DNA from: an archaeon
GTDB taxonomy: Archaea; Iainarchaeota; Iainarchaeia; Iainarchaeales; Iainarchaeaceae
Assembly: GCA_035289485.1 (NCBI GenBank)
Contig: DATDXA010000010.1
Span: forward strand, 1 to 26,209
Length of the DNA stretch: 26,209 nt
Direction: 5' to 3'
The notes beneath the pieces are model-generated. The model saw only the letters and a program-made list of their open reading frames with translations. It searched no databases and had not been told where the DNA came from. The stretch's first letter is position 1. The number at the start of each line of letters is the position of its first letter. The position numbers and the translations under genes are program-made. This document shows, piece after piece, positions 1,439 to 14,091 of this stretch.

Positions 1439-1827
1439 AAAAAATGGTGATTGCAATGGCAATGCTTGTGCTTTTGCTTGGATGCTCTTCGCAAATGCAG
1501 CAGGTGCAGCAGCCACAAATGCAGAATGTTGCTGTGGATATAAAGCTCGTCAACAGGGACTCTGAAACACTCTATGAAAAGCAGATAACAGTGCAGAAAG
1601 GCAAATCACTATTTGAAGCAATGATTGAGAATTCCGTTCCGTTCGAGTACAAGGAGTTTTCCTTTGGAGTGATGGTAACAAGCGTTGCGGGAGTATCTCC
1701 TGGCAGCGAGGAATACATCGCAATTTACAAAAATGGCAAATATGCAAGTGCGGGAGTTAAGGATTTTAAGCTTGATGAGGACATGAATGTTGAATTCAGG
1801 CTCGAGGAAATAAAGCCGCCGGCATAA
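1435..1827 (+). CDS. DUF4430 (transcobalamin C-terminal-like) lipoprotein
   Basis: Lipobox LLGC; 'FGVMVTSVAGV...YKNGKYASAGVKDFKL..D.NVEF' pattern typical of DUF4430. Confidence 0.75.
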   Translation: MKKMVIAMAMLVLLLGCSSQMQQVQQPQMQNVAVDIKLVNRDSETLYEKQITVQKGKSLFEAMIENSVPFEYKEFSFGVMVTSVAGVSPGSEEYIAIYKNGKYASAGVKDFKLDEDMNVEFRLEEIKPPA

Positions 1828-1900
1828 AGCGCAAAAGCGCCTTCTTCTAAAAGCCGGCCTTGCCAAAAACCATTAAAAATCCCGCCAGCCCCAATAAATA

Positions 1901-1965
1901 GTCCAATGATGATTCGAGATTTCTGAGCTGTGAAAAGGATGCTGAGACTGGTTCGAGCTGAGGAC
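1901..1965 (+). ncRNA. Archaeal C/D box sRNA; its 3' end is the integration site (attL)
   Basis: Stem GTCC(1901-1904)/GGAC(1962-1965); perfect C box ATGATGA 1906-1912; D' CTGA 1923-1926; degenerate C' within about 1930-1942; D CTGA 1958-1961; TTAAAAA promoter at 1873-1879. Confidence 0.8.
1950..1965 (+). repeat. attL core GGTTCGAGCTGAGGAC
   Basis: Identical to 10676-10691. Confidence 0.92.
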
Positions 1966-2022
1966 GACCTGATATACACAGTTTAGATTGTTCTTTTATA
2001 TGCCAAAAGAGGCAATCTGAAC

Positions 2023-3252
2023 ATGAAAAACGATGCACACTACACCCAAAAACTCAGGGAAAAAGTGCAACAATCCAGCTGGCCCACAGAAAAAAAGAAC
2101 GCCTTTTTGGACTACCAAAACTACTTGGAAGCCACAGGCAAAAGCGCGCGCACCAAAACCCTCTACTCCCTACACGTCCACCGTCTGGGAGAGTTCGCCC
2201 CAAAAAAACAATTCGCAAATTACACCGACAAGGACATCATGGCATACAAAACCAAGCTATCCGAGAAATACGCGCCCAAAAGCGTGCATTGCGAAATGCT
2301 CGACCTCATAACCTTCCTCAAATGGCACATGAAGCTCGAGGGAAAACCCGAATGCATGAAATGGTACGATGTCAGCGAGCAAAACAAAAAGGTTGTGAAA
2401 AAACTGAACCCCAAGGACGTTTTAACGCCCGAAGACATTCTCGCGCTCGTTTCCTCATGTGGAAGCAAACGAAACAAAGCCATTGTATTCTGTTTATGGG
2501 AATCGGGCTGCCGGATACAGGAATTCTTAGATGTCCTCGTGGATGACCTGCAAATAAGCGAAAAGGTTGTTTCCGTTTGGATTCGCAAAGGAAAAACCCG
2601 CGAAGCTGAAAGGCAGGTATTTTTGATTCAATCCGCGCCCGCATTAATGGACTGGCTCGCCGAACATGAATTTAGAAAAAACAAAAACGCAAAACTATTT
2701 TTTTCCATGGGCAACAAACAACCCGGAGGCATACTGCACCACTCAGTAGCTTCCAGTATTCTTTCAAGAGCCGCAAAAAAAGCCAAAATCCAAAAGCCCG
2801 TGAATCCGCACGCACTGAGAAAATCAAGAGCCACTTTCATGGCACAAAAAGGTTACGGTGACCAAATGATGCGGCAAATGTTCGGATGGAGCGCAAACAG
2901 CCCCATGCCAAGCTTCTACTCCTCGCTATCAGGCGATGCCGTGAAAATGGCGCTCATGCAGGATGCGGGAATAATCAAGAAAGAGGAAACGGGGCAGGAG
3001 CTTGCGCCCATACCATGCCCATACTGCAAAACAACAAACAGCGCCGATGCGGCAATATGCAAGAACCTTGTTTGCTCAAGACCCTTGACAATGGAAGGAA
3101 TCACTCAAGACCGCGAGCAAAAAGCCGAAGCAATGCGCCAAATGATGCACGGCGAAATCACCGAAGCGATAGCCGCATACTTGCGCCCATTAGGGGTTAA
3201 AGCACTCGCCGAAATGACTAAAAACCAGAAAAGACTTACTAAGGAGGGATAA
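2023..3252 (+). CDS. int: Tyrosine recombinase/integrase with C-terminal Zn ribbon
   Basis: GCRIQE (R), KGKT (K), HALR (HxxR), FGW, MPSFY (Y); CPYC...CKNLVC. Confidence 0.95.
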   Translation: MKNDAHYTQKLREKVQQSSWPTEKKNAFLDYQNYLEATGKSARTKTLYSLHVHRLGEFAPKKQFANYTDKDIMAYKTKLSEKYAPKSVHCEMLDLITFLKWHMKLEGKPECMKWYDVSEQNKKVVKKLNPKDVLTPEDILALVSSCGSKRNKAIVFCLWESGCRIQEFLDVLVDDLQISEKVVSVWIRKGKTREAERQVFLIQSAPALMDWLAEHEFRKNKNAKLFFSMGNKQPGGILHHSVASSILSRAAKKAKIQKPVNPHALRKSRATFMAQKGYGDQMMRQMFGWSANSPMPSFYSSLSGDAVKMALMQDAGIIKKEETGQELAPIPCPYCKTTNSADAAICKNLVCSRPLTMEGITQDREQKAEAMRQMMHGEITEAIAAYLRPLGVKALAEMTKNQKRLTKEG

Positions 3253-3254
3253 AT

Positions 3255-3683
3255 GTGGCTAAAGAACGATATAAAATACTCGAATCGGTAGAGTGTTTCG
3301 GAATTTACAAATTAATTCTTTATTCAAAAGGTCTTACATACGATGAAGTTTCAGTAAAAACGGGAAAATCAATTCCTGTCATAAGCCAGCAATTAACTCC
3401 ATTAAGAAATGAAGCACTTGTCAAAAATATAACGGGCACAGGAGTGCGGGGTATTCCTGCACGGGTAATCGCATCTCAAATCGGGGCGCAGACATTTTTG
3501 AAAAAGCACGGCTTTAAAGTTACCAATGTGTATAAATTCTATCAGACCAACGAAAACATATTGGAAAGGGCTAGGACGTTTGGCGAGTTTTTTTCTTTAC
3601 TTAAAACGGATAAAGATGCCATTCCAAAAATTTTAACTTTTGATGATAGACTCGGAATGCAAAAAACACAGGGAAAAAATTAA
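3255..3683 (+). CDS. Winged-helix DNA-binding protein (putative repressor)
   Basis: GGAGG before GTG; 'LTYDEVSVKTGKSIPVISQQLTPLRNEALV' HTH pattern. Confidence 0.7.
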   Translation: MAKERYKILESVECFGIYKLILYSKGLTYDEVSVKTGKSIPVISQQLTPLRNEALVKNITGTGVRGIPARVIASQIGAQTFLKKHGFKVTNVYKFYQTNENILERARTFGEFFSLLKTDKDAIPKILTFDDRLGMQKTQGKN

Positions 3684-3730
3684 CTTTGCACGATGCAAAG
3701 GTTTTTAAACTTATAACCCCTTTAATTTGC

Positions 3731-3889
3731 ATGATGCAAAAGAAACTAAAAGCAATTTTCACACGAGTATCAGAGTCGGATTACCGTCGGCTCGAAACTT
3801 TTGAAAAATCCCACGGTTTTCCATCAACCCACTCAGCCGCACGATTTTTGTTATTTCGCGGTTTGGAAGCAGAAGAGGGGAAAACGTGA
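3731..3889 (+). CDS. Ribbon-helix-helix (CopG-like) protein
   Basis: 'KAIFTRVSESDYRRLE...STHSAARFLLFRGL'; TTTTAAA/TTATAA box just upstream of ATG 3731. Confidence 0.7.
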   Translation: MMQKKLKAIFTRVSESDYRRLETFEKSHGFPSTHSAARFLLFRGLEAEEGKT

Positions 3890-3981
3890 CTTTTTCTTCT
3901 TTCCTTTCCGATTTCGCCCGCGAGCAAGGCGTGAGCGTTGAGCAGGCGCGGGATGCAATAATTGGGGGTCTTTTGAAATGA
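3886..3981 (+). CDS. 31-aa micro-protein (MTFSSFLSDFAREQGVSVEQARDAIIGGLLK), absent from the ORF track
   Basis: GTGA overlap with the upstream stop and ATGA overlap with the downstream start; fills the gap exactly. Confidence 0.6.
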   Translation: MTFSSFLSDFAREQGVSVEQARDAIIGGLLK

Positions 3982-4277
3982 AAAATAGCTCCCCCACAAC
4001 CTTGCGAGAAGCAGGGGCACTAACTGATTCTTCTCACCCAGAATATAAGAAATCAGCCGTGCGGCACACTTGCCCCGTTTGTAACACCCCCAACGGCGCG
4101 AAAATGTATAAACTCCGAGCCTCCGGCAACCGCGTAACATGGCTTCACGCCTATTGTATCACCAAGCTTTCAGGGATGCCATCAGCTCTCCAATGGTGCG
4201 AAAAAAATCTTCCATTTAATCTTTCGGCGGTTTCACCCCATCAAGCCGCCGCCCCAAACAAGGAGGCGCGACCATGA
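3978..4277 (+). CDS. Small putative Zn-finger protein
   Basis: CPVC...HAYC; coupled to the rep gene (ATGA). Confidence 0.6.
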   Translation: MKNSSPTTLREAGALTDSSHPEYKKSAVRHTCPVCNTPNGAKMYKLRASGNRVTWLHAYCITKLSGMPSALQWCEKNLPFNLSAVSPHQAAAPNKEARP

Positions 4278-5782
4278 AGCGAGAAAAGCGCGAATCAGGG
4301 CCGCCAACCGAGCAGGTCGCGGCGCTCTACAATTCCGAGGGTCAGCTCCTCTACGAAACCGTGTATGACGGGGAGAAAAGTTTTTTCGTTACGCTCGTGC
4401 AGGGAAAGCCCCGGTATTTGGCTGATGTGTCAATCGGTGATGTGATTTATCAGCCCGCGCTTCAAGAGGCGTTAAAAAAAGGCGCGATTATTCTCCCAAA
4501 AGCGGCGAAGCCATACGAATCCGTGAACATTCTGCTCGATAAGGTGCAAGCCTTTATTCAGAAATACCTTGACGTTTCCCCGGACTATGAAGTGTTTGCC
4601 GCGCACTACATACTTCTATCATGGGTTTATGACCGCCTTAACACAATTCCATATCTGCGCTTCCTCGGCGACTTCTCAACAGGAAAGAGCCGCGCCCTAA
4701 ACGTGGTCGGAGGCCTATGCTACAAACCTATTCGCATGGCCGGAACAGTAACCGCCGCACCAATCTACCGCCTGCAAGGATTCTGGAAAGGAACCCTCGT
4801 AATTGACGAAGGCGACAGAAAAAAAAGCGATGAAGCTGACGAAATAACAAAAATCCTTAACTGTGGTTTTGAGATAAACAACCCCGTCCTTCGCTGTGAT
4901 GTCAATAACCCAAACGATGTCGAAGCGCATGATGTGTTCGGCCCGAAGGTGTTGGGTTCACGCCAGCCATTCTACGACCAAGCTCTTGAATCGCGGTGCT
5001 TAACCGAAGTGATGCGCGAAACTTCCCGCGATGACATTCCGACAATACTTCCACCCGCATTTTACGAGGAGCAAGAAGATTTACGCGAGCAATTGCTTTA
5101 TTTCCGCCTTACTGAGCGCGACCAAATAGACCTCGACCTTGTTTCCAGTGTGGACTTCGGCCAGCTCATTGAACGGAGATTAAGGCAGGCTTTCTCCGGG
5201 TTCTCAATCTTGTTGGCAAATAAGCCCGAACTCCTTCAAAAATTCAAAATTTTTGTTTATGAATATCAGCGCGGTTTAATCGAACAGAGAGAAGCCAGCG
5301 TTGATGGGGCAATTATAGCATATCTTTTCGAGCGCCGCGATGAAATAGATAAGGAAGTTCAATCTACAATTTCCAGCGCGGATATTTTGGAATCTCTTAA
5401 AGGCAGAGCCGGGTTTTCTGAATTAACCCCAGCGGGGGTGGGAAGGAAGTTGAGGGCGCTTGGAATTGCCACGAAAAACGTAAAAGTTGACGGGAAGGTT
5501 CGCCGGGGGATTATTTGGAAGCGCTCGGATATGGAGCAATTGTTTCGTAAATATATTTCGGAATCATGGATGCCCTCCGCTACTACTGCTACAACCGCTA
5601 CTACTGCTACTGAAAATCGCCAAAAAGTAGCGGAGGTAGCGAAGGTAGCGGTAGTAGCGGGGAGTGCGCCTATCCTCAATTGCGTTAAATGTGGCGCTGA
5701 ATTGCAGAACGGCGAGTTCCTTGTTCGGGATGAAAGGCCTTATTGTCCGGGGTGCGCTCCGCAGGTCGGTGGTTCTCCATGA
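4274..5782 (+). CDS. Putative replication protein: P-loop ATPase/helicase (DUF3631-like) with wHTH and C-terminal Zn finger
   Basis: Walker A GDFSTGKS, Walker B LVIDEGD, 'ILNCG', 'ALESRC' Arg finger, 'VGRKLRALGI' wHTH, CVKC...CPGC; GGAGG RBS. Confidence 0.8.
   Translation: MKREKRESGPPTEQVAALYNSEGQLLYETVYDGEKSFFVTLVQGKPRYLADVSIGDVIYQPALQEALKKGAIILPKAAKPYESVNILLDKVQAFIQKYLDVSPDYEVFAAHYILLSWVYDRLNTIPYLRFLGDFSTGKSRALNVVGGLCYKPIRMAGTVTAAPIYRLQGFWKGTLVIDEGDRKKSDEADEITKILNCGFEINNPVLRCDVNNPNDVEAHDVFGPKVLGSRQPFYDQALESRCLTEVMRETSRDDIPTILPPAFYEEQEDLREQLLYFRLTERDQIDLDLVSSVDFGQLIERRLRQAFSGFSILLANKPELLQKFKIFVYEYQRGLIEQREASVDGAIIAYLFERRDEIDKEVQSTISSADILESLKGRAGFSELTPAGVGRKLRALGIATKNVKVDGKVRRGIIWKRSDMEQLFRKYISESWMPSATTATTATTATENRQKVAEVAKVAVVAGSAPILNCVKCGAELQNGEFLVRDERPYCPGCAPQVGGSP
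5579..5658. repeat. Inverted pentamer array (candidate origin of replication)
   Basis: GCTAC at 5579, 5588, 5597, 5606 and GTAGC at 5627, 5636, 5645, 5654 (9-bp period) around a 16-bp A-rich spacer. Confidence 0.85.
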
Positions 5783-5952
5783 CCTCCGAGGTTACCGTTT
5801 CGGTTCGGCTTGGGCCTGTGGCTTTTGAAAATTTAGCCGCGCTTTGCTATCTTTTGGATTTGTCGCCCGAAGACGCTTTGGAACAGGCGTTAAGCAGAGC
5901 CACCGCAGATTTAGGAGAACCTTTATCTAAAAAGGAAAGGGGGCGGTTGTGA
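5779..5952 (+). CDS. Small RHH-like protein
   Basis: ATG overlaps the rep stop; 'VTVSVRL...FENLAALC......SPEDALEQAL'. Confidence 0.6.
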   Translation: MTSEVTVSVRLGPVAFENLAALCYLLDLSPEDALEQALSRATADLGEPLSKKERGRL

Positions 5953-6093
5953 ATGCCTGAAGTGTCCGAGATTGTGATTAATGCGGTGTTTACAGGCGCG
6001 GGAACTGCGGTGGGCGCTTTTCTTGGAACGCGGCTTGTGGTTCACAAGCTGGAGGGTTTGCTTGAGCGGCTCAAAAACGGGGTGAAACCTTGA
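5953..6093 (+). CDS. 46-aa single-pass membrane peptide, absent from the ORF track
   Basis: MPEVSEIVINAVFTGAGTAVGAFLGTRLVVHKLEGLLERLKNGVKP; abuts the upstream stop and overlaps the downstream TTG. Confidence 0.7.
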   Translation: MPEVSEIVINAVFTGAGTAVGAFLGTRLVVHKLEGLLERLKNGVKP

Positions 6094-6398
6094 AACGGCT
6101 TAAAAATTTTAGATTGCCTGATGATATTTGCAGTATTGTTGAGGCGCAGCCGAATCAGGCGGAATTCGTGGAAAAGGCGATTCGACTATATCACAGCACC
6201 GATGCTTTACATTCTGCACCAGCTTTACACGAAAAAAGCGAGGCAGGGGTGCAAAAAACGCATAGCTTTACACAAGTGGGCGAGCGTTTAAGCTCTGTCA
6301 GCGAGGCAATTCCGCAACCTGCACGCCCTTCCGCGTGGTGGACGGTAGAGCTGCGCCCCGGTCTTGTTAAACTATATTTCAGCGAGGTGAACCGATGA
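6090..6398 (+). CDS. RHH-like DNA-binding protein
   Basis: GGTGA RBS; 'KNFRLPDDICSIVEAQPNQAEFVEKAIR'. Confidence 0.65.
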   Translation: MKRLKNFRLPDDICSIVEAQPNQAEFVEKAIRLYHSTDALHSAPALHEKSEAGVQKTHSFTQVGERLSSVSEAIPQPARPSAWWTVELRPGLVKLYFSEVNR

Positions 6399-6658
6399 CC
6401 TCTCGGCAGGAAGCGCATGCAAAAAAGCTTGACAAGTTTTTGACAGCGGTTACTGATGCTGGTATTCGGTTAAAGCTTTCGAGGCAGAATGTTTTTTGGG
6501 CATTGTCAATTTACCTTCTTCGATTGCCTTCGGAACCGTTATTGGATGACGAACTGGGCGAAGGGGAGTATGACGATGACATTCTCGAAGGCGAGGACGA
6601 ATCGCTCGCGCCTGTCAAAGGGCCGCAAGAACCAAAACACTATCCGGGGGTGGCGTGA
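6395..6658 (+). CDS. Hypothetical protein with acidic C-terminus
   Basis: GAGGTGA RBS, ATGA coupling. Confidence 0.65.
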   Translation: MTSRQEAHAKKLDKFLTAVTDAGIRLKLSRQNVFWALSIYLLRLPSEPLLDDELGEGEYDDDILEGEDESLAPVKGPQEPKHYPGVA

Positions 6659-6737
6659 TGCTTTCCACACACAGGGGTAGGGCGCATAAAATTATGATAT
6701 ATGTATTGTTCGGAAAACTGGGCAGGAGGTGCTGGTT

Positions 6738-7169
6738 ATGAAAGGCAACGAAGAACAGTATGAGGACGAGGAGGAACCAGAGGAGGAGCCAACGTATGTG
6801 CTTTATTCGCAAAGGGTGGACATAGCGAATGATGCTCCGAGCTTCGGTTCGGAGAAGGAAGCGTTTGCGTTCAGGGAGAATGTCGAGCGTACGACAGGCA
6901 ACGAGTATGTGGTCGTTCAGCTAAACCCGAATGAGTTCCGGGTGGGTGAACTATCCTGTGGCTTAACAGGCCGTGCGCTCATACCACTAGCACTTGGGGA
7001 CAATCCAAAGTATTATGCCTTCCATGATGAGGAGCTGGCAGAGCAGGCGGCAAGGATGCTTAAAGCATGGTCGCCTTACGCGCAGGTCTTTGTAAAGAGC
7101 GCGCGACCTGAAGAGTTTGGTGTTAGGTCGGAGGATTGCCTGTGGGATGTTTTGCCGGGAAAAGGATAA
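6738..7169 (+). CDS. Acidic hypothetical protein
   Basis: GGAGGTG RBS before ATG 6738; Glu-rich. Confidence 0.7.
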   Translation: MKGNEEQYEDEEEPEEEPTYVLYSQRVDIANDAPSFGSEKEAFAFRENVERTTGNEYVVVQLNPNEFRVGELSCGLTGRALIPLALGDNPKYYAFHDEELAEQAARMLKAWSPYAQVFVKSARPEEFGVRSEDCLWDVLPGKG

Positions 7170-7251
7170 GATGCCCCCACTCTATCATGGAGGGGGATGG
7201 GATTTCGGGCTTTTTCTTTCCAAATCTGGAAACCGTTCAAGGTGATATACA

Positions 7252-7467
7252 ATGGCAGTAAGGAAAAAGAGGTTTGGCAGGGCGCTTATGATTCGCATGA
7301 ATGAGAATCTTTGGCGGCAGCTGGATACTGAATGTGGCTCTGGTTCTTTGACTAAAGCTAGGTGGGTTCGCACAGCCATACGCCATTGCCTGCATTGTGA
7401 ACAGGCAAAGCTCGAGCTGAGTCAGCAGGTTTATTCGAGGGTTATGAAATGGTCTGAACCACGCTAA
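7252..7467 (+). CDS. RHH-like protein
   Basis: AGGTGA RBS; 'LMIRMNENLWRQLD......TKARWVRTAI'. Confidence 0.7.
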   Translation: MAVRKKRFGRALMIRMNENLWRQLDTECGSGSLTKARWVRTAIRHCLHCEQAKLELSQQVYSRVMKWSEPR

Positions 7468-7603
7468 TGATTAAATAATTAGTATGAGGTTTTTGTTCGT
7501 TTGCCCCTGTCGTTGGCAAAAGACTTTTTCCGATATACCGCTTAAAATTCTCTGCGAGCTATGCTGAAAACAATTGGATTGTTGTTATTAATAGAATTAG
7601 GAT

Positions 7604-7966
7604 TTACATTCCGCCGTATGCGCCGCCGGAGTATTCGACATTGCGTCGGGCAATCAAAAGATACGCGAATGAGAAAACTACAAGGATGTAGAACCAGCCA
7701 TATTTTCCAACACTCTCGACAATCGATTGGCTTCCAGCTGAGGCGTTTTGTTGGTCGGCAATTACCCTGCCTGTTTCGTTTTTGATTGTTCCGGGTGCGA
7801 GGTTGCCGATGTTTGCGTTTGTGTCGGATAGGATTGCGTTGGATTCGTCAAACATTCCTGTAATGAAACTGTTTAAAATCGGGTTTTGCACGGAGAACAT
7901 GAACGCCATCAAGCCCACGACTATTGCGAAAACAAAAACGTATGAGAAAACTCCGCGCTCATTCAT
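7604..7966 (-). CDS. Two-TM small membrane protein with class III-like signal peptide; candidate major virion protein
   Basis: MNERG|VF followed by a hydrophobic helix, Asn-rich linker with NET/NAS sequons, second hydrophobic helix; GAGGTG RBS. Confidence 0.7.
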   Translation of the reverse strand: MNERGVFSYVFVFAIVVGLMAFMFSVQNPILNSFITGMFDESNAILSDTNANIGNLAPGTIKNETGRVIADQQNASAGSQSIVESVGKYGWFYILVVFSFAYLLIARRNVEYSGGAYGGM

Positions 7967-7975
7967 GTGCGCACC

Positions 7976-10198
7976 TCAAAGCCTGATGGCGAAGCGTGGG
8001 AATATTTGCGAGCGCGAGCTGCTCTTTTGTTTTTTTGCTCGCGGAGCTGGGCGGCTTCCAAAGAATTCGTTGAATCCTGCGAACTCGGAGGTTTTGCCGA
8101 AGATTGGCATGGCTCTGCGTGGTGCTGTCCTGCTCCTGCCCGTTTGCCCCCGACTTACAGCTCTGCCTTCGCCAAATGCGTTCCCGAAAGCAGCTGCCCA
8201 TTCATCAAAATACCCTAGTCGTGTCCGTCTGGTTCCTACTCCGCCTTCTGCGCCTAGTCTTCCGGGTGGGAAGAATGGCAAGCCCGTGGGTACTAGGGTG
8301 GGGACGTTTACCATGCTTGGAACGTTAATGTTTGTTGCGGTTGGCACGGTTGTTTCTGTCGTAGTTTCAGCCGGCCCTAAGATGTCTGTTATTTCTGGGA
8401 TATTTGTTTTTGTCGGGATTTGGGTTATGCTTGGTGTTTCTGTTCTGCTCGGCGTTTGCGTTGTGGTGAACGTGGGCAGTCCGAATTCGTCCACCAGCAC
8501 GCTGCGCCCGCCAATGTTTACCGTGCGCGAAGGCGTGAACACATCCGAAAAAAACGTAGTACCCGTTTTTGCTTTCCCTTTTGGCGCGGCTTTCTGTGTA
8601 ACCACAGGAGTTCCAGAACCCGATACGCCCATCGTGAGAACAGGTATACGCAATCCGGCTTCACGCCCAACCGCACGACTTATAAGCTTTTCAGCAACAT
8701 CACCTCCCGGTTCACCCGGAAAATCAACACCATAACCCACTCCTTGGATCACCCTTCCAAAACCATAAGGAACAGCCACCGCTTGAAGACCGGAGAATGT
8801 TGCACCACTCACACCGCCAATCGCCGCGCCAAAAAACACTCGCGACCAATCGGCTTCTCTTTTGGTAAGAGTTTCTATGTTATACGTTTGCCCCCCGCCT
8901 TCAACAACAGCAACGGCACCGATACGAGGAACGGTTAATGCTCCAAGTGCAAGAGCCTGTTTGGCAGGAGTTTTTGCGGCTCGAAGTGCCGCAGAACTTC
9001 CGCGTGTCCATTGGCTGCCGATAAATTCGCTTCCCGTTTCACTTGCGATTATACCAAGCGATGACCAAAAGCCTACAGATTCACCGCTCTTGATTACCGC
9101 GCTTATGTTCTGCGAGGTTATAGGATAGCCTTGTGATTGCAGGGCTTTTGTCGCGGCTGTTTTTTTTGATTCTTCGGATATAAAAAAACTTGTCAAACCC
9201 TGTATTCCTGATAAACCAAAACGTTGTCCCATTCCAAGCAAATCGTCTCCTCCGACTTCAGGGCGTATGATTTCGCTCGAAATCACTTTCCCTGTTTCAT
9301 CCACCGATTGATTAATGCGACCTGAAAGACCGGTGCTTATGGATTCGGAATGGTATGTTTCCAGCACTCCGAGCCTTTGTTCTCTTTGCCCGCCAAGTAT
9401 TTTTTGCAAAGTTGTTGCTTCGCTTTCTTTTGCCCCCTGCGTTGCTGTTGCACCCCACAAATGCAAACCAATCCCAGTGCCATAAACAGCCCCACTTTTA
9501 ACAGAACCGGGCACACGAGAAACAACCCCGCCACCTTTTTGAATTGCCCGTTCTGTCGTTTGAACTGCAGCAGTTCCACCCGGAACGCGAGAAGCAACAC
9601 GCGAAACCACAGGAGCCGCGCGTTCCAACAACCCGGCTAAACCGCCAACTAAAAATCTTACACCTCTGGCGATAGGATAAACAGAACCGGCTTCCGCGGC
9701 CATGGCAGACACCGGTCGACCTATGACAGCATCATATTGCGCCCGTTGTTCTTTAGGAATCAAACGTCTGGCTTCCAGTATCGGCCCGATAATAGGAACG
9801 TTTCCACTTGTCCCGATTTTATCTTGCGTGTTCGCAAACTGTTGATAAGCTGTAGCTCCAAGACCTCCGAAAATGCCATAATCCTGTTGCGGTTTTTGAA
9901 TTTCTACCTTGCGAACAGGAGCCGGAGTTATTGGCGCTCTTGAAACCGGTTCTGTGGGAATATTTCTATTAACCAAGCTAGCCTGAGCCTGAACCTCCGC
10001 AGGAGTAGGCGCAACCGCACCCCCACCCGAAGAACCGCCACCGCCGCCGTATCCGGCAAAATGTTTTTTTGCGGCTTCAGGGCCTTGTTGCCAAAAAACC
10101 TTTTTAGTTTCATCAAATTGCTTTTGAGCTTCTTGCCTCGCTGCTGATTGCCGAGCGAGAGCAGAAGCCGCCGAGTTAAGCTGGGCTTGCGTTGCCAT
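7976..10198 (-). CDS. 740-aa Gly/Ala-rich membrane-associated protein with Thr/Pro-rich and basic C-terminus; candidate virion/DNA-entry protein
   Basis: Long ORF, GAGGTG RBS, TAATG coupling; several GxxxG hydrophobic segments. Confidence 0.75.
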   Translation of the reverse strand: MATQAQLNSAASALARQSAARQEAQKQFDETKKVFWQQGPEAAKKHFAGYGGGGGSSGGGAVAPTPAEVQAQASLVNRNIPTEPVSRAPITPAPVRKVEIQKPQQDYGIFGGLGATAYQQFANTQDKIGTSGNVPIIGPILEARRLIPKEQRAQYDAVIGRPVSAMAAEAGSVYPIARGVRFLVGGLAGLLERAAPVVSRVASRVPGGTAAVQTTERAIQKGGGVVSRVPGSVKSGAVYGTGIGLHLWGATATQGAKESEATTLQKILGGQREQRLGVLETYHSESISTGLSGRINQSVDETGKVISSEIIRPEVGGDDLLGMGQRFGLSGIQGLTSFFISEESKKTAATKALQSQGYPITSQNISAVIKSGESVGFWSSLGIIASETGSEFIGSQWTRGSSAALRAAKTPAKQALALGALTVPRIGAVAVVEGGGQTYNIETLTKREADWSRVFFGAAIGGVSGATFSGLQAVAVPYGFGRVIQGVGYGVDFPGEPGGDVAEKLISRAVGREAGLRIPVLTMGVSGSGTPVVTQKAAPKGKAKTGTTFFSDVFTPSRTVNIGGRSVLVDEFGLPTFTTTQTPSRTETPSITQIPTKTNIPEITDILGPAETTTETTVPTATNINVPSMVNVPTLVPTGLPFFPPGRLGAEGGVGTRRTRLGYFDEWAAAFGNAFGEGRAVSRGQTGRSRTAPRRAMPIFGKTSEFAGFNEFFGSRPAPRAKKQKSSSRSQIFPRFAIRL

Positions 10199-10407
10199 TA
10201 ATCGCACCTCGTTTTATTTGCTTCAAAGTATAATTTTGCTTCCTGCGTGCCAATACTCCAAAAGATATTCCGAGTATCCTCGTATAATGTTTTTTGGCAC
10301 GTTTGGGGAAGATTTTGGTATGCCACAGAATCAGGGATAGGAATTACTACGGCTCCAGCTGCGCTTACAAGCATGAGAACCCCGGCGAGAATTAGCGCCG
10401 GGTTCAT
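10198..10407 (-). CDS. Small secreted or membrane-anchored protein
   Basis: N-terminal hydrophobic signal, two Cys, coupled at both ends. Confidence 0.7.
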   Translation of the reverse strand: MNPALILAGVLMLVSAAGAVVIPIPDSVAYQNLPQTCQKTLYEDTRNIFWSIGTQEAKLYFEANKTRCD

Positions 10408-10580
10408 GTTCCCGCCCCGCTAACGATTATTTGTTTATCCTGCACGCGCCATGTGAGCTTTTGCCCGTTTATGTCCGTGCGAAGCCCCAAGAGGTTCACG
10501 GCGAAGTCATAGGGCACGCTGACTTTGAAATACTTGCGACCCTTCGCCTTTGAGAAAAAAACGCTGGTTTGCTTTTCCAT
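10404..10580 (-). CDS. AbrB/SpoVT-like DNA-binding protein
   Basis: 'YFKVSVPYDFAVNLLGL......LTWRVQDKQIIVS' swapped-hairpin pattern; probably leaderless from ATG 10580. Confidence 0.65.
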   Translation of the reverse strand: MEKQTSVFFSKAKGRKYFKVSVPYDFAVNLLGLRTDINGQKLTWRVQDKQIIVSGAGT

Positions 10581-10675
10581 AAAGAAGGTTGCTAACAGCC
10601 GAGAATAAAAAAACAATGGGCTATAAGGTTAATGAAAGAACAAAAAACTAAACTGTTGGAATCTGGCGCGTTTTA

Positions 10676-10691
10676 GGTTCGAGCTGAGGAC
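10676..10691 (+). repeat. attR core GGTTCGAGCTGAGGAC
   Basis: Identical to 1950-1965. Confidence 0.92.
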
Positions 10692-10783
10692 ACATAATTC
10701 AGATGCCATTGTGAAATAAATGCGCCGAAAGCGGATTAGCTCTTTTTATGAAAATGGATAAAAAGAAATTTTTGAACCGAAGG

Positions 10784-12823
10784 TCATTTTCCGCCAAAGA
10801 GTCCGCCAAGCCGCCCCATGTTGAAAAGGTCCGAGAACTTGCTTGATTCTTCCTCAAGCTGCCTTGACTGCTCATCAAGCGCCGCAAGTGTCTCTTTGTC
10901 ATCAACACCGCTCGCCTCAAGCTTTGTCCTTATTTCCTTAAGCTTGTCAGCCCGCACACGCACCTTTGCCCCATAGTCGCCATCGCCGAATAAATAGCTC
11001 ATGAAACCGAGTTTTTCCTGGTCCTCTGCGGTTTTTTCGACCGTGTCCCCGAGCTGGTTTGCAAGGGCGGGGTCGTCATCAAAAAGTCTTGCAAGGGCGC
11101 CCTGGAAGTTGTCTGTGGCTATCTTGTCGGCTTTTATAACGCCAAAGCGCCTGCACATCTGCGAAACTACCTGTGAAGCCAGCTCTTCCGGATTTTCAAT
11201 CGATGACTGGCAGCTGCTTGCCGCGTCCTGCTTGGCTGAGCAGTTCACTGCTGCCTCTGCCCTGCACATTGCCATGCGCAGCTTCACAGAGCCCAAATCC
11301 CCAATTGCCCTTGAAGCCTCCTGCTTGCACCTCACTTTCATCCTCTCAAACTCGCCTGCCGGGGGACCGCCCTGCTGCGGGGCAAACTGGTCAAGGAGCT
11401 CATCATCGCTCATTTCGCACATCTCTTCCGGACTTGGCCCCGGAGGCCCGTATCCGCCCTGCTGCGGGGGCTGCCCATAATTTTGTTGGTCCGGGCGTTG
11501 GTAACCCTGCTGCTGGCCGTAATTGGGCTGGCCCTGGTTTGGCCCATACTGCTGCCCGGGATAAGGCTGATAGCCTTGGCCCTCAAAGCCCCTTGGCTGC
11601 TGGCCCGAACCATAAGGCTGCTGGCCAAAATCAGGGCCTTCAGTTCCACTGCCAGGCACATAGCTAGACCCTGCACTTGGGAGAACATCTGTGGAGGATT
11701 GCTCTGAACGCTGCACCTCTGTGGAGCTGCCAGGAGAAGATTGCGTTGAATCGGCCTCTTCCAAATTGCCTACTGTAAAAAACCCTGTTGCCGGAAATAT
11801 CCTCTCCATTATCCTTTTTGCGGCGGTTTCAGCGGGGGAATCCTGAGCCGGAGCCTGTTCAGGCTCTGGTGCAGGCGCTGGCTCTTGAGGCGGTGCCACA
11901 GTTTCCTGCGGCTGCGGATTTTCTGAGGGTGTCTCCTCCTGCTGTGGCGCCGAATCTTCATATGGCGCATCCTGCACCGGCATTGGATAATTTTCTTGTG
12001 GCTGGGGTGCCGGCTCGCTGCCCTGCTGATATGGCGGCTGCTCGCAGACCCATCTTCCGGTTGTGCACGAGGACCTTGCACCGCCAGGGCATTGTGGGGG
12101 CTGTGATGAGCACTCGTCCCTATAACCGGGCTGCTGGCCGCCATAGCCCTGTTGCGGCTCCCTGTTTCCCTGGCCTTGCTGCTGCACATTAAATTCCGGG
12201 AAATGGAAGTCGAATGAGCGCTCCTGCATCTGCTTTAAATTCTGCTTGAACTCGGTGCACTTCTGCCTGAACTCAGGAATTTTTGCCTTGATGCTTTCTA
12301 AGAACTCCTCCTCCCTTGCCGCCTGCCTCTCTTTCTGCTCATCTATTTGTGCGATGCAAACTTTTTCTATAACAGTCTCGTTCATTGTCTCAAAAGTGAG
12401 GCTTTCGGCAGTGTACCCTGCCTTTTCGAGGTATCGCTTCATCCCCGGAGGAAATGGGAGGCCGCCCTCGCTAAACGAAGGGCAATATAGGTCCGGAGTG
12501 CATGAATCGGCTTCTGACTTGAGCCTTGCGCACGCGGTTGAAGTCTCCCCAGACTGCCTTATCACCGAAGCTATCTGGGATTGGATAGCGTCCCTCTCGC
12601 CCCTGCAGCCCTGCACGAATGCACCGCTATTTTCCGAAACCCAAGTATAGGCACTGGTCATCGATTCAACTAGTTGCTGGGATGCGACATATTCCTGGTC
12701 CGCATAGCTTGCCTTTTCCATGCCAAAGCCGAAGTCGTTTTCTGCAAAGCCCTGCCCGCCAAATTGGTCATTTTCTGCCGAATAGGAAAATGCTGACAAA
12801 ATTAGTACTGCAAAGCCAATCAA
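10784..12823 (-). CDS. Large secreted Cys-rich protein with Gln/Pro/Gly low-complexity linkers
   Basis: Signal-like N-terminus, many spaced Cys in helical blocks, QQxYG-type repeats; start uncertain. Confidence 0.8.
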   Translation of the reverse strand: MIGFAVLILSAFSYSAENDQFGGQGFAENDFGFGMEKASYADQEYVASQQLVESMTSAYTWVSENSGAFVQGCRGERDAIQSQIASVIRQSGETSTACARLKSEADSCTPDLYCPSFSEGGLPFPPGMKRYLEKAGYTAESLTFETMNETVIEKVCIAQIDEQKERQAAREEEFLESIKAKIPEFRQKCTEFKQNLKQMQERSFDFHFPEFNVQQQGQGNREPQQGYGGQQPGYRDECSSQPPQCPGGARSSCTTGRWVCEQPPYQQGSEPAPQPQENYPMPVQDAPYEDSAPQQEETPSENPQPQETVAPPQEPAPAPEPEQAPAQDSPAETAAKRIMERIFPATGFFTVGNLEEADSTQSSPGSSTEVQRSEQSSTDVLPSAGSSYVPGSGTEGPDFGQQPYGSGQQPRGFEGQGYQPYPGQQYGPNQGQPNYGQQQGYQRPDQQNYGQPPQQGGYGPPGPSPEEMCEMSDDELLDQFAPQQGGPPAGEFERMKVRCKQEASRAIGDLGSVKLRMAMCRAEAAVNCSAKQDAASSCQSSIENPEELASQVVSQMCRRFGVIKADKIATDNFQGALARLFDDDPALANQLGDTVEKTAEDQEKLGFMSYLFGDGDYGAKVRVRADKLKEIRTKLEASGVDDKETLAALDEQSRQLEEESSKFSDLFNMGRLGGLFGGK

Positions 12824-12980: not shown

Positions 12981-13748
12981 CTACTGCGGGGTGAATGTTA
13001 CATCCGATTTTTTGGACTTGCTTCCTGGCCAGAATGAGCTCACTTTCACGGCAGAATCAACCGTGAATGAGATTGTGCCATCTTTTCCGTTTGGGACGTT
13101 GAAGGTTTCAAATGCGCTGCTGCGAATGTCAGCTCCGCCCCATACCGAATTCTGTGTCCTCTGGTTTATTGTGAGGTTCACAGTGGCGCCTTTTGGGACC
13201 ATGATTTCGCTCACTTTGTTTCCGTCCTGATAGAAGCCCTTATCGTCGCTCTCGAGCATGAAGCTCACGGCATCTGGAGAGGGGCTTGATTGCGCTGGCT
13301 CAACTCGCGTTTGGAGCCGAACTGAAATGCCCGCAGTTTCCCCGCCTTCAATGTCTATTTCACCGGAATTTGCGGCGAAAACGTTTTGCGCATCCGCAGC
13401 TGCCACGTAAATTTCGCCTGAAGTGACATTCTCAAACGTCACTTTGCCTGAAGAATCGGTGTTCTTCATGCCGATTTTTGGGGCATCGGAACTATCGCCC
13501 GCGAAAATCTCAACAACTGCATTTTCAACTGGGTTGCCATCCGGCCCCGTTACAGTGACTTCAAGTTCGCCCTTAGCAGAAGTTCCTGCGCTATTTGACG
13601 GAGTCGTGTCTGCGGGGGCCTGGTTTTCCTGAGCCCCTACAGCAGTGTTTTGCTCTCCCTGAACTGAAGCCTCCGACTGGTACTGTGCGCAGCCAGAAAG
13701 CAGCACCAATGCCGCAACCAGGCATGCAAATAGTATTTTCATATTCAT
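12981..13748 (-). CDS. Lipoprotein with carboxypeptidase-regulatory-like (prealbumin) domain and cupredoxin-like C-terminal domain
   Basis: GAGGTGA RBS; lipobox LLSGC; 'VTGPDGNPVENAVV..TDSSGKV.F'. Confidence 0.75.
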   Translation of the reverse strand: MNMKILFACLVAALVLLSGCAQYQSEASVQGEQNTAVGAQENQAPADTTPSNSAGTSAKGELEVTVTGPDGNPVENAVVEIFAGDSSDAPKIGMKNTDSSGKVTFENVTSGEIYVAAADAQNVFAANSGEIDIEGGETAGISVRLQTRVEPAQSSPSPDAVSFMLESDDKGFYQDGNKVSEIMVPKGATVNLTINQRTQNSVWGGADIRSSAFETFNVPNGKDGTISFTVDSAVKVSSFWPGSKSKKSDVTFTPQ

Positions 13749-13891
13749 TGTTTCACCTCGCAAACCAAAAATAAAATTGGCAAGCACTTTCTGCACCGAG
13801 GTGAATATAAAATTGTTGATGCGGCCACTAACGGAGCATAAGAATTGAAAAATTCGAATTTTTATCAAAAAAACTTAAAAAAGGGGTGGAA

Positions 13892-13926: not shown

Positions 13927-14091
13927 TCAGTTATTCTTCTGCAGTTCCTTTATCCTTTCTGCAACCCCTTTGGCTTCCTTCTCAAGGGTATCCTGATACT
14001 CCTTGAGCATTTCTATTTTCTCCTCTTTTGTCAGGAATCCCCTGTACGCAGAGTAGTCGCCTGTGCATCCGCACGAACTTGTGCAATTCAT
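13927..14091 (-). CDS. 54-aa Cys-leader coiled-coil protein (DUF5320-like), absent from the ORF track
   Basis: MNCTSSCGCTGDYSAYRGFLTKEEKIEMLKEYQDTLEKEAKGVAERIKELQKNN; GGAGG RBS. Confidence 0.8.
   Translation of the reverse strand: MNCTSSCGCTGDYSAYRGFLTKEEKIEMLKEYQDTLEKEAKGVAERIKELQKNN

Follow-up and report, generated by a model that had tools for sequence, protein, structure and literature searches.

The DNA analysed here, 26,209 nucleotides (nt) of the archaeal contig DATDXA010000010.1 (assembly GCA_035289485.1, family Iainarchaeaceae), raises the question of what occupies its positions 1950 to 10691: a virus, a satellite of one, a plasmid, or nothing mobile at all. We refer to the whole stretch as the window, and all coordinates are positions within it. 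A preliminary description made from the sequence had read the segment as a compact provirus or satellite of a DPANN-like archaeon. The host assembly totals 1.16 Mb and is 90% complete; the window belongs to its contig C10, and the right part of the window carries ordinary archaeal genes for RNase HII, TrmB, an ABC transporter, TatD, and a DRG-type GTPase. We consider it near-certain that positions 1950-10691 are a discrete, intact, integrated, and recently mobile element. We further read positions 1966-10675 as a complete, site-specifically integrated replicon of a small DPANN archaeon. With a probability of roughly 0.55, this replicon is a virus that is temperate and non-tailed, or a satellite of such a virus, and it would belong to a group not yet described.

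An exact direct repeat of 16 nt, GGTTCGAGCTGAGGAC, marks both ends of the element and is found at 1950..1965 (attL core, + strand) and at 10676..10691 (attR core, + strand). When up to 3 mismatches were allowed, the window contained two matches to this sequence against 0.11 expected, and none of 100 shuffles contained two or more; at up to 1 mismatch, the same two copies were the only ones in the entire assembly of 1,156,387 bases. The GC content of the element is 48.4%, compared with 43.6-43.7% for its flanks, and its coding density is 94%. All 15 of its open reading frames (ORFs) are open, and they form two convergent operons, one on the plus strand (2023-7467) and one on the minus strand (10616-7604). 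Thus, the preliminary description was right in noting an integrase, intact ORFs, and an early plus-strand operon facing a convergent one. It had also noted the lack of a terminase, portal, capsid, packaging ATPase, relaxase, or type IV secretion system, and none of these families was matched when the ORFs of the element were searched against Pfam, PHROGs, and NCBIfam; the sole above-threshold family match was the integrase. In the same three databases, no ORF matched the HK97-fold capsid, portal, or large terminase that are hallmarks of Caudoviricetes, and searches of Pfam and NCBIfam yielded no relaxase, coupling protein, or VirB4/TrbE-type ATPase.

Judged from its boxes, its conservation, and the covariation of its terminal stem, the sequence at 1901..1965 (+ strand) is a host C/D box small RNA (sRNA) gene, and the repeat is the 3' end of this gene, which is conserved across the host family. 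The 5' part of the sRNA consists of the stem strand GTCC (1901-1904), a C box, ATGATGA (1906-1912), a 10-nt guide, and a D' box, CTGA (1923-1926); the 3' part consists of a C' box, ATGCTGA (1939-1945), a 12-nt D guide (1946-1957), a D box, CTGA (1958-1961), and the stem strand GGAC (1962-1965). The att core corresponds to the last 16 nt of the gene and so takes in the final 8 nt of the D guide along with the D box and 3' stem. We found the gene in 11 genomes of the family, and it occurs in all six genera. In an alignment of these 11 genomes, 41 of the 44 cells of the terminal stem are paired, a value reached by none of 500 shuffles, whereas controls in which the stem was slid along the alignment gave 30-66%. 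Furthermore, three of the four stem pairs change on both sides (GTCC/GGAC, GCCG/CGGC, and GTTC/GAAC), and the C' box of the G021 sRNA is the consensus TGATGA. BLAST comparison of six genomes indicated that the 60 nt ending at the repeat are 84-89% identical in same-genus relatives, compared with about 70% for the neighboring protein gene.

At gathering scores, Rfam matched nothing in the window. In a permissive scan, 15 of the 17 matches to the sRNA locus were to snoRNA-type families on the + strand, all below their gathering scores; the best was sR2 (E 0.0027, 23.4 bits versus a gathering score of 42). The host genome also carries adjacent genes for fibrillarin (PF01269, 6.9e-80) and Nop5 (PF01798, 4.1e-60) on contig C34. 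The host assembly contains no rRNA genes. Compared with the 23S genes of four relatives, the D guide pairs with a conserved site over 11 of 12 positions (3 of them G-U), although several equally good chance sites were present per locus. Two other identities for the target were rejected: a tRNA gene, because ARAGORN found no tRNA in the window, and a small minus-strand ORF over the core, because the region has C/D boxes, covaries in its stem, and is conserved throughout the family.

The integrase gene (2023..3252, + strand) begins 57 nt downstream of attL. It is contained entirely within the element and is intact in the integrated state. Because the gene is not split by integration, the enzyme is not of the type found in Sulfolobus spindle-shaped viruses (SSV). 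Its product is a 409-aa, XerA-like tyrosine integrase with a C-terminal Cys4 extension, which is matched by PF00589 (E 1.3e-19), PF13495 (3.2e-07), phrog_1 (7.2e-23), and, below the equivalog cut-off, a XerA-type model of NCBIfam (1.2e-30). The catalytic residues, as read from the sequence, are R166, K190, H263-x-x-R266, W289, and Y299. This enzyme recombined an attP site, carrying a copy of the last 16 nt of the sRNA, with the sRNA gene itself. Since the att core is the 3' end of the gene, as is the case with integrases that target tRNA genes, a complete sRNA remains at attL, and integration left at attR a 16-nt stub that partially duplicates the sRNA 3' end.

This logic is familiar. Genes for tRNA and transfer-messenger RNA (tmRNA) are integration targets of temperate phages and of archaeal integrative elements. 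As with the integrases that use tRNA, tmRNA, or 4.5S RNA genes, the integrase gene adjoins attL, attP copies the 3' end of an RNA gene so that the gene is rebuilt, and related elements re-use the site; unlike in those cases, the target here is a methylation-guide sRNA of the C/D box class. For the 4.5S RNA gene, ffs, integration was reported in 2025 (PMC12540744). In our literature search, we found no prior report of a C/D box sRNA gene as an integrase attachment site.

The element is absent from all six congeners of the host. In congener G006 (contig G006:C5), the sRNA is followed by ordinary genes and no element, representing an empty site. For G001 and G005, the assembled sequence breaks off at the sRNA. 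The same target has been used by related integrases. In G004, a frameshifted and truncated integrase, 48-65% identical to that of the window, lies directly after the same sRNA, and we conclude that this locus (G004:C13) is a decayed element at the same site. Downstream of the broken integrase, the locus (L026:222-2552, from about 14520) continues with a 372-aa DGQHR-motif protein and transposase-like fragments at the contig end. In G015, which belongs to another genus, an integrase fragment of 60% identity has the same position and orientation after the sRNA and is cut off by the contig end. Finally, G003 contains a 1.17-kb segment between exact 19-nt repeats (GGTTCGAACTGAGAACGCT) of the 3' end of its own C/D sRNA, and this appears to be what is left of a previous insertion into the att site. 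This segment (G003:C21, L024:158-1344, about 9357-10543) holds a 142-aa gene and a gene for a 162-aa membrane protein, with no integrase.

We also compared contigs, rather than raw reads, from four public runs (X1-X4) over positions 1500-11200; two of these runs are possibly the source of the present assembly and are not independent of it. A contig of run X3 that comes from the left flank and matches up to 1965 goes on with ACATAATTCAGATG, and these 14 letters are identical to the sequence to the right of attR. This junction is an empty attB, in the pattern that an unoccupied site leaves in a k-mer graph, and because it exists, natural populations are polymorphic for the element. The contigs of run X1 are interrupted at the core, and the two flanks have depths of 19.4 and 17.1 versus 8.82 for a 6,076-bp internal contig, although such contig depths are crude and summed over strains. 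In run X2, long contigs pass unbroken through both attL and attR. A contig of run X4 leaves the window at 10687, within the att core, and then follows a G004-type sRNA end and its downstream DNA; therefore, a G004-like relative with an occupied site co-occurs in that sample. In addition, an identical 4,660-bp internal fragment of the element exists in a second metagenome record. The preliminary description had named reads across the attP junction and excess coverage as checks. What the runs provided instead was the empty attB of X3 and about half depth over the element in X1, with no attP among the loose ends listed.

It is very improbable that the segment is a dead remnant, or that a chance repeat surrounds ordinary host genes. 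Such a segment would fit the lack of a circular form among the rows listed for the public-run contigs. However, the reading frames and the catalytic motifs of the integrase are intact, the repeat is statistically unexpected, the element is missing from every congener, and the public runs contain both an empty junction and differing depths. An integrated element that was recently mobile is indicated by the att repeats, by a site that is unoccupied both in a congener and in public assemblies, and by related integrases at the same target.

What replicates this element? The rep gene (4274..5782, + strand) encodes a 502-aa P-loop protein (Rep). A beta domain forms its N-terminus, and an ATPase core, a winged-helix-like C-terminal part, and a Cys4 tail complete it. 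Bacterial and archaeal homologues of Rep number at least 624, and its Walker A (GxxGKS) and Walker B (DE) motifs are invariant in 30 of them. At the sequence level, there was no Pfam match, and a profile search of the PDB gave nothing below E 0.26. An AlphaFold2 model built from a 30-sequence alignment had a predicted local distance difference test score (pLDDT) of 82.7. With Foldseek, the PDB structures matched by this model were the C-terminal helicase region of the NrS-1 primase-polymerase (best, E 2e-7), minichromosome maintenance (MCM) 2-7 subunits, Rep of the Staphylococcus aureus pathogenicity island (SaPI) SaPIbov1, PriRep1, and Cch of the staphylococcal cassette chromosome SCCmec; E ranged from 2e-7 to 7e-5 at a probability of 1.00, with template-modeling (TM) scores of just 0.30-0.42 (entries include 8tch, 7pds, and 5dgk). 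The predicted fold supports the assignment of the protein as a replicative helicase-initiator of the MCM/Cch/SaPI-Rep-like class, and bears out the rep call of the preliminary description. Thus, in its modeled fold Rep resembles the Rep of SaPIs and other phage-inducible chromosomal islands, Cch, the NrS-1 helicase region, and archaeal MCM, but unlike these it has no sequence-level PDB or Pfam match. The helicase of the element also stands alone, while 15 of the 120 Rep homologues listed carry primase-type domains, namely PF09250 (Prim-Pol) and/or PF01807 (primase zinc finger). Within rep, a 32-nt stretch (4822-4853) is common to contigs of other organisms in all four runs, with divergence on both sides; several elements that co-occur in these samples thus have this conserved core of the Rep ATPase gene in common.

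The 3' end of rep contains a candidate replication origin (5577..5660). Here, two opposed arrays of a 9-nt unit, CCGCTACTA repeated 3.9 times and GTAGCGGAG repeated 3.8 times, form a hairpin of about 33 bp, whose DNA fold (-28 kcal/mol, z -5.65) was equalled by none of 200 shuffles. An origin had been proposed at the outset; the iteron array and its hairpin make this a reasonable candidate, and candidate status is as far as the proposal goes. Once excised, the circle would use Rep, as a hexameric helicase-initiator acting on this hairpin, to replicate. In SaPIs, an iteron array likewise adjoins rep.

The combination of integrase and Rep is not confined to the window. Both are present, with Rep 48-51% identical, in G185:C14 and in G120:C100. 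In G185:C14 (L067:2208-13502), from a DPANN relative, the integrase and a 48%-identical Rep occur in a window-like layout, and the convergent block combines an RNase H-like gene with genes for Mod (682 aa) and Res (966 aa), which make up a type III restriction-modification system. From this comparison of gene content, the int-Rep backbone appears to be one that swaps its cargo. These relatives raise the main alternative to a virus, which is that the window holds an integrative plasmid, or cryptic integrated element, in which int and rep are the whole selfish unit, the convergent genes are cargo (surface, exclusion, or vesicle-related), and any transfer is passive, via vesicles or contact between the DPANN cell and its host cell. 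The G185 backbone with its restriction-modification cargo, together with the absence of a recognizable structural gene in the window element, favors this plasmid-like reading, and so does a Rep fold class common to SCCmec Cch and the plasmid protein PriRep1. In sequence searches, however, Rep gave two weak matches in phage records and none in 72,556 plasmid records, a set that is mostly bacterial. A single-sequence scan of IMG/VR with Rep gave no match.

The minus-strand operon also bears on the choice between virus and plasmid. Its third gene (7976..10207, - strand) encodes a 743-aa basic protein and its last (7604..7966, - strand) a 120-aa membrane protein; in every case, the 120-aa gene follows the 743-aa gene. 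In the 743-aa protein, a member of a rare family, a Gly-rich linker at the N-terminus leads into a confidently predicted helical core (about 240-520), after which come a C-terminal part rich in Thr and Pro and a basic tail; the protein is largely disordered or helical, with one marginal hydrophobic segment. Its AlphaFold2 model has a mean pLDDT of 55, rising to 70-94 in the core. A search of 1.84 billion representatives yielded 20 family members at E<=1e-3. In the 120-aa protein, a loop of about 60 aa separates two hydrophobic helices (6-24 and 88-106), and the protein has seven homologues in 5.8 billion clusters. An invariant Arg-Gly precedes its first helix, and by eye this leader resembles a signal of class III (prepilin type). 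The nearest ESM Atlas cluster of the 120-aa protein contains 250 members, 93% of them viral (feature score 0.92, TM 0.77), and its nearest clusters are 91-100% viral, which we regard as a lead and not as proof. For the 743-aa protein, an ESM Atlas match to a viral PT-TG cluster (0.86) was likewise kept as a lead only, and kinship with tape-measure or minor-tail proteins was rejected (E>=0.03, TM<=0.13; mixed helical bundles at Z<=6.8). The structure comparisons proposed in the preliminary description gave viral neighbors, as a lead only, for the smaller protein and no fold match for the larger.

Upstream of this pair are two further genes. The first of the operon (10404..10616, - strand) encodes a 70-aa basic protein (58 aa from an internal ATG) of no known family in Pfam, PHROGs, or NCBIfam. 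The second (10198..10407, - strand), whose end overlaps the start of the 743-aa gene, encodes a 69-aa protein with one N-terminal hydrophobic helix, a signal or anchor. By eye, the C-terminal end of the 69-aa protein (FWSIGTQEAKLYFEANK) resembles residues ~37-52 of the 743-aa protein (FWQQGPEAAKKHFAGYG), which may be a small duplication. As for the earlier view of this operon as one of membrane proteins, it holds for the 120-aa and 69-aa products, which have strong hydrophobic helices, but not for the 743-aa product.

Where else does the pair occur? The 743-aa gene was present in one of 41 related genomes, which was the host itself (G000), and its profile matched in two of the 215 genomes of the phylum. 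Genes of the two types lie side by side in the window and also in L003, L023, and G028:C10, and the proteins P0122 and P0147, as well as P0124 and P0151, are encoded on shared contigs. L023 is a linear IMG/VR record, 31% complete by CheckV, with genes for a PrimPol-helicase, a superfamily 1 helicase, a VRR-NUC protein, a methylase, a Sak4-like protein, and a single-stranded DNA-binding protein. It shares with the window the 743-like, 120-like, 71-aa, and 46-aa ORFs and nothing else. G028:C10 (L031 plus L066) is a contig of 21,861 bp with a GC content of 28.6%, binned with a DPANN genome of the host's order. Because it ends in an exact 55-bp terminal direct repeat, we take it to be a circular 21.8-kb replicon that is probably complete. 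Apart from an integrase, a DNA methylase, a weak AAA+ (DnaA/DnaC-like) match, and a module of 644-aa, 124-aa, and 856-aa proteins, almost all its ORFs are ORFans, and only the 743-like and 120-like genes are shared with the window. In both G028:C10 (856 aa) and L003 (641+ aa), the pair is followed by a large protein that appears to be secreted; the window element has none. The pair was found on mobile replicons alone, with three unrelated replication modules. The preliminary description would have been weakened had no virome homologue come to light; instead, both L023 and the circular episome G028:C10 carry the pair.

Taken together, the restriction of the pair to mobile replicons, the three replication modules, and the filing of one relative as viral favor a role in a particle or in transfer. 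On this view, the four products of the minus-strand operon (70, 69, 743, and 120 aa) would make up a particle or transfer module. Its chief membrane or coat component would be the 120-aa two-helix protein, which a host prepilin peptidase may process, and the 743-aa protein would be a large structural, DNA-associated, or entry protein. The same distribution speaks against plasmid cargo, since ordinary cargo would be expected in chromosomes too, whereas the pair is found in just two of the 215 phylum genomes. Moreover, the 743/120 operon is the sole large non-replicative coding block in an 8.7-kb element that is 94% coding, and the relative in IMG/VR has strong phage-type replication genes. We judge the plasmid explanation a serious one that is still distinctly short of even odds.

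Several results weigh against reading the element as a virus or a satellite of one. The fold of the 743-aa protein matched nothing known (no BFVD match at E<=1e-3; best Z of 6.8 in a wide VIA search), a result that also suits a plasmid, and the protein has neither an N-terminal signal peptide, judged by eye, nor a strong transmembrane helix. It matched none of 50,697 GenBank records of phages and archaeal viruses. Searches of IMG/VR with the 743-aa protein alone or with a 3-sequence profile retrieved nothing, and neither did searches with family members P0126 and P0131; a 7-sequence alignment retrieved L023 alone, a fragment. Species-genome scans gave no match. Capsid, portal, terminase, packaging ATPase, and known archaeal-virus structural families were not detected in the element, in L023, or in G028:C10. 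BLAST of the element against the 215 phylum genomes gave matches of 22-39 nt, and the five that we inspected lay in non-repetitive sequence with no CRISPR array. The attP (circular) junction was not seen among the 24 loose ends listed for the four runs, whose contigs drop rare forms and give the crude depths mentioned above. Finally, the Rep of G185 belongs to an int-rep element that, with its restriction-modification cargo, behaves as a plasmid or island. Of the virus or satellite first proposed, what stands is an integrated, intact, and recently mobile element whose 743/120 pair recurs on a virome contig; virions, and with them a spindle, filamentous, or enveloped form, are conjectural.

A more specific version of the viral reading is that the element is the first integrated member of an undescribed family of non-tailed DPANN viruses. 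Such a family would have a two-gene particle module, consisting of a helical basic protein of 650-880 aa and a two-helix protein of about 120 aa with a prepilin-like leader, freely joined to unrelated replication modules, and one of its integrase lineages would be specialized on the C/D box sRNA attB. We hold this tentatively, at slightly below even odds.

Within the viral reading, the element might be a helper-dependent satellite that consists of an integrase, regulators, Rep, an origin, and two to four genes common to larger viruses, such as the 21.8-kb circular element, and that borrows the rest of its particle. It would be in keeping with this that only the 743-like and 120-like genes match G028:C10, that these and the 71-aa and 46-aa ORFs match L023, and that the large secreted protein found after the pair elsewhere is missing. 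The gene order (int, regulators, rep, and ori) and a Rep fold like that of SaPIbov1 Rep recall the phage-inducible chromosomal islands, in which int, a repressor, and rep-ori are joined by genes for hijacking the particle of a helper that is also needed for induction. Among archaea, pSSVi and pSSVx of Sulfolobus are a comparable satellite precedent, and the window element, like pSSVi, joins an integrase with a helicase Rep. However, no helper was found in the same genome, where the 743-aa profile matches the element alone. Small size by itself does not demand a helper, because pleolipoviruses manage with about 7 kb. We regard a satellite as unlikely.

Known archaeal viruses and plasmids offer partial parallels. 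The Pleolipoviridae, such as Halorubrum pleomorphic virus 1 (HRPV-1) and SNJ2, are small temperate archaeal viruses resembling membrane vesicles, with genomes of 7-17 kb, a tyrosine recombinase, and no classical capsid genes. The element is of this size class and shares the tyrosine recombinase, the lack of classical capsid genes, and the joining of variable replication modules to a conserved module of a small membrane protein and a large protein. The SNJ2 integrase is the subject of PMC5861418. Unlike the Pleolipoviridae, the element has no second NTPase and a reversed gene order, and its 743-aa protein has no spike-type signal peptide or C-terminal anchor. At the sequence level, PHROGs and Pfam gave no VP3-, VP4-, or VP8-type homologues for the 120-aa and 743-aa proteins, with Rep as the sole P-loop protein, although the two may still be functional analogues.

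Archaeal integrative plasmids and elements include the pTN3 and TKV types. An integrase, a replicative helicase, and variable cargo are features that the window element shares with cryptic integrated elements and integrative plasmids of archaea, among which G185:C14 fits well with its restriction-modification cargo; thaumarchaeal integrated mobile genetic elements (PMC6563490) are another example. It departs from them in that its non-replicative block is a rare pair otherwise seen on a virus-classified contig and a circular episome alone. In being small and having two hydrophobic helices, the 120-aa protein resembles capsid proteins of spindle-shaped viruses (the SSV1 VP1 class), but unlike VP1 it has no family match in Pfam or PHROGs, and its inter-helix loop is about 60 aa.

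The remaining genes of the element are small and lie on the plus strand. A gene whose start overlaps or abuts the end of int (3255..3683) encodes a 142-aa basic protein that we consider a putative winged-helix regulator; the repressor of the preliminary description is thus present as a gene, but its identity as a regulator is a conjecture with no family match in Pfam, PHROGs, or NCBIfam. Next come a 67-aa basic protein (3686..3889), possibly of the ribbon-helix-helix type by eye and having sub-threshold Pfam and PHROGs matches alone, and a 99-aa Cys-rich, zinc-ribbon-like protein (3978..4277), which has no family match in the three databases and whose gene overlaps the start of rep. Downstream of rep are ORFs of 69 aa (5743..5952; no known family in Pfam or PHROGs), 46 aa (5953..6093; hydrophobic, with 63% identity over 41 aa in L023), 102 aa (6090..6398; no known family in Pfam, PHROGs, or NCBIfam), 87 aa (6395..6658; acidic), and 146 aa (6729..7169; strongly acidic, with 29 D+E versus 14 K+R), the last two with no known family in Pfam. 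The operon ends with a 71-aa basic ORF (7252..7467), ribbon-helix-helix-like by eye, with 64% identity over 69 aa to an ORF in the corresponding place of L023. Regulation of the two convergent operons would fall to the small basic proteins.

To the right of attR, two minus-strand genes precede a conserved LUD gene. One encodes a 679-aa acidic, Gln/Pro/Gly-rich low-complexity protein (10784-12823) and the other a 295-aa lipobox protein with a CarboxypepD_reg-like domain (12981-13868). This block has a GC content of 52%, is not at this place in congeners, and shows a partial DNA match on another contig of G002, marking a variable region that adjoins the att site. An extension of the element over these genes was rejected, as no further copy of the core was present even at 3 mismatches. 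Next to them, upstream of the LUD gene, is a 54-aa ORF (13927-14091, - strand; MNCTSSCGCTGDY...KELQKNN), whose DNA is 79-82% conserved in same-genus genomes. It has no Rfam match and looks like an ordinary small conserved protein.

Seven DPANN virus families were named in Wu et al. 2024 (Nat Microbiol), as relayed in part by PMC13573593, through which alone they are known here, and the 743/120 family may overlap with them. For DPANN archaea, only a small number of viruses or plasmids have been understood gene by gene, and almost none have exact borders, a defined att site, and evidence of recent mobility. The present element is a precisely delimited, intact replicon of 8.7 kb, which is small enough to be synthesized and tested. 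Its 743/120 pair marks mobile replicons that are otherwise unrelated and is a candidate for a new particle or transfer apparatus. If the pair is ordinary cargo, the finding reduces to a well-characterized integrative plasmid with an unusual att site. The 3' end of the C/D box sRNA, conserved family-wide and re-used by related integrases, widens the rule that small structured RNAs serve as integration targets beyond tRNA, tmRNA, and 4.5S RNA, and it can serve as a search key for further DPANN elements. If one integrase lineage of a new virus family has indeed specialized on this sRNA gene, the gene would represent a new class of integration target, one that couples a mobile element to the rRNA-methylation guide repertoire of its host.

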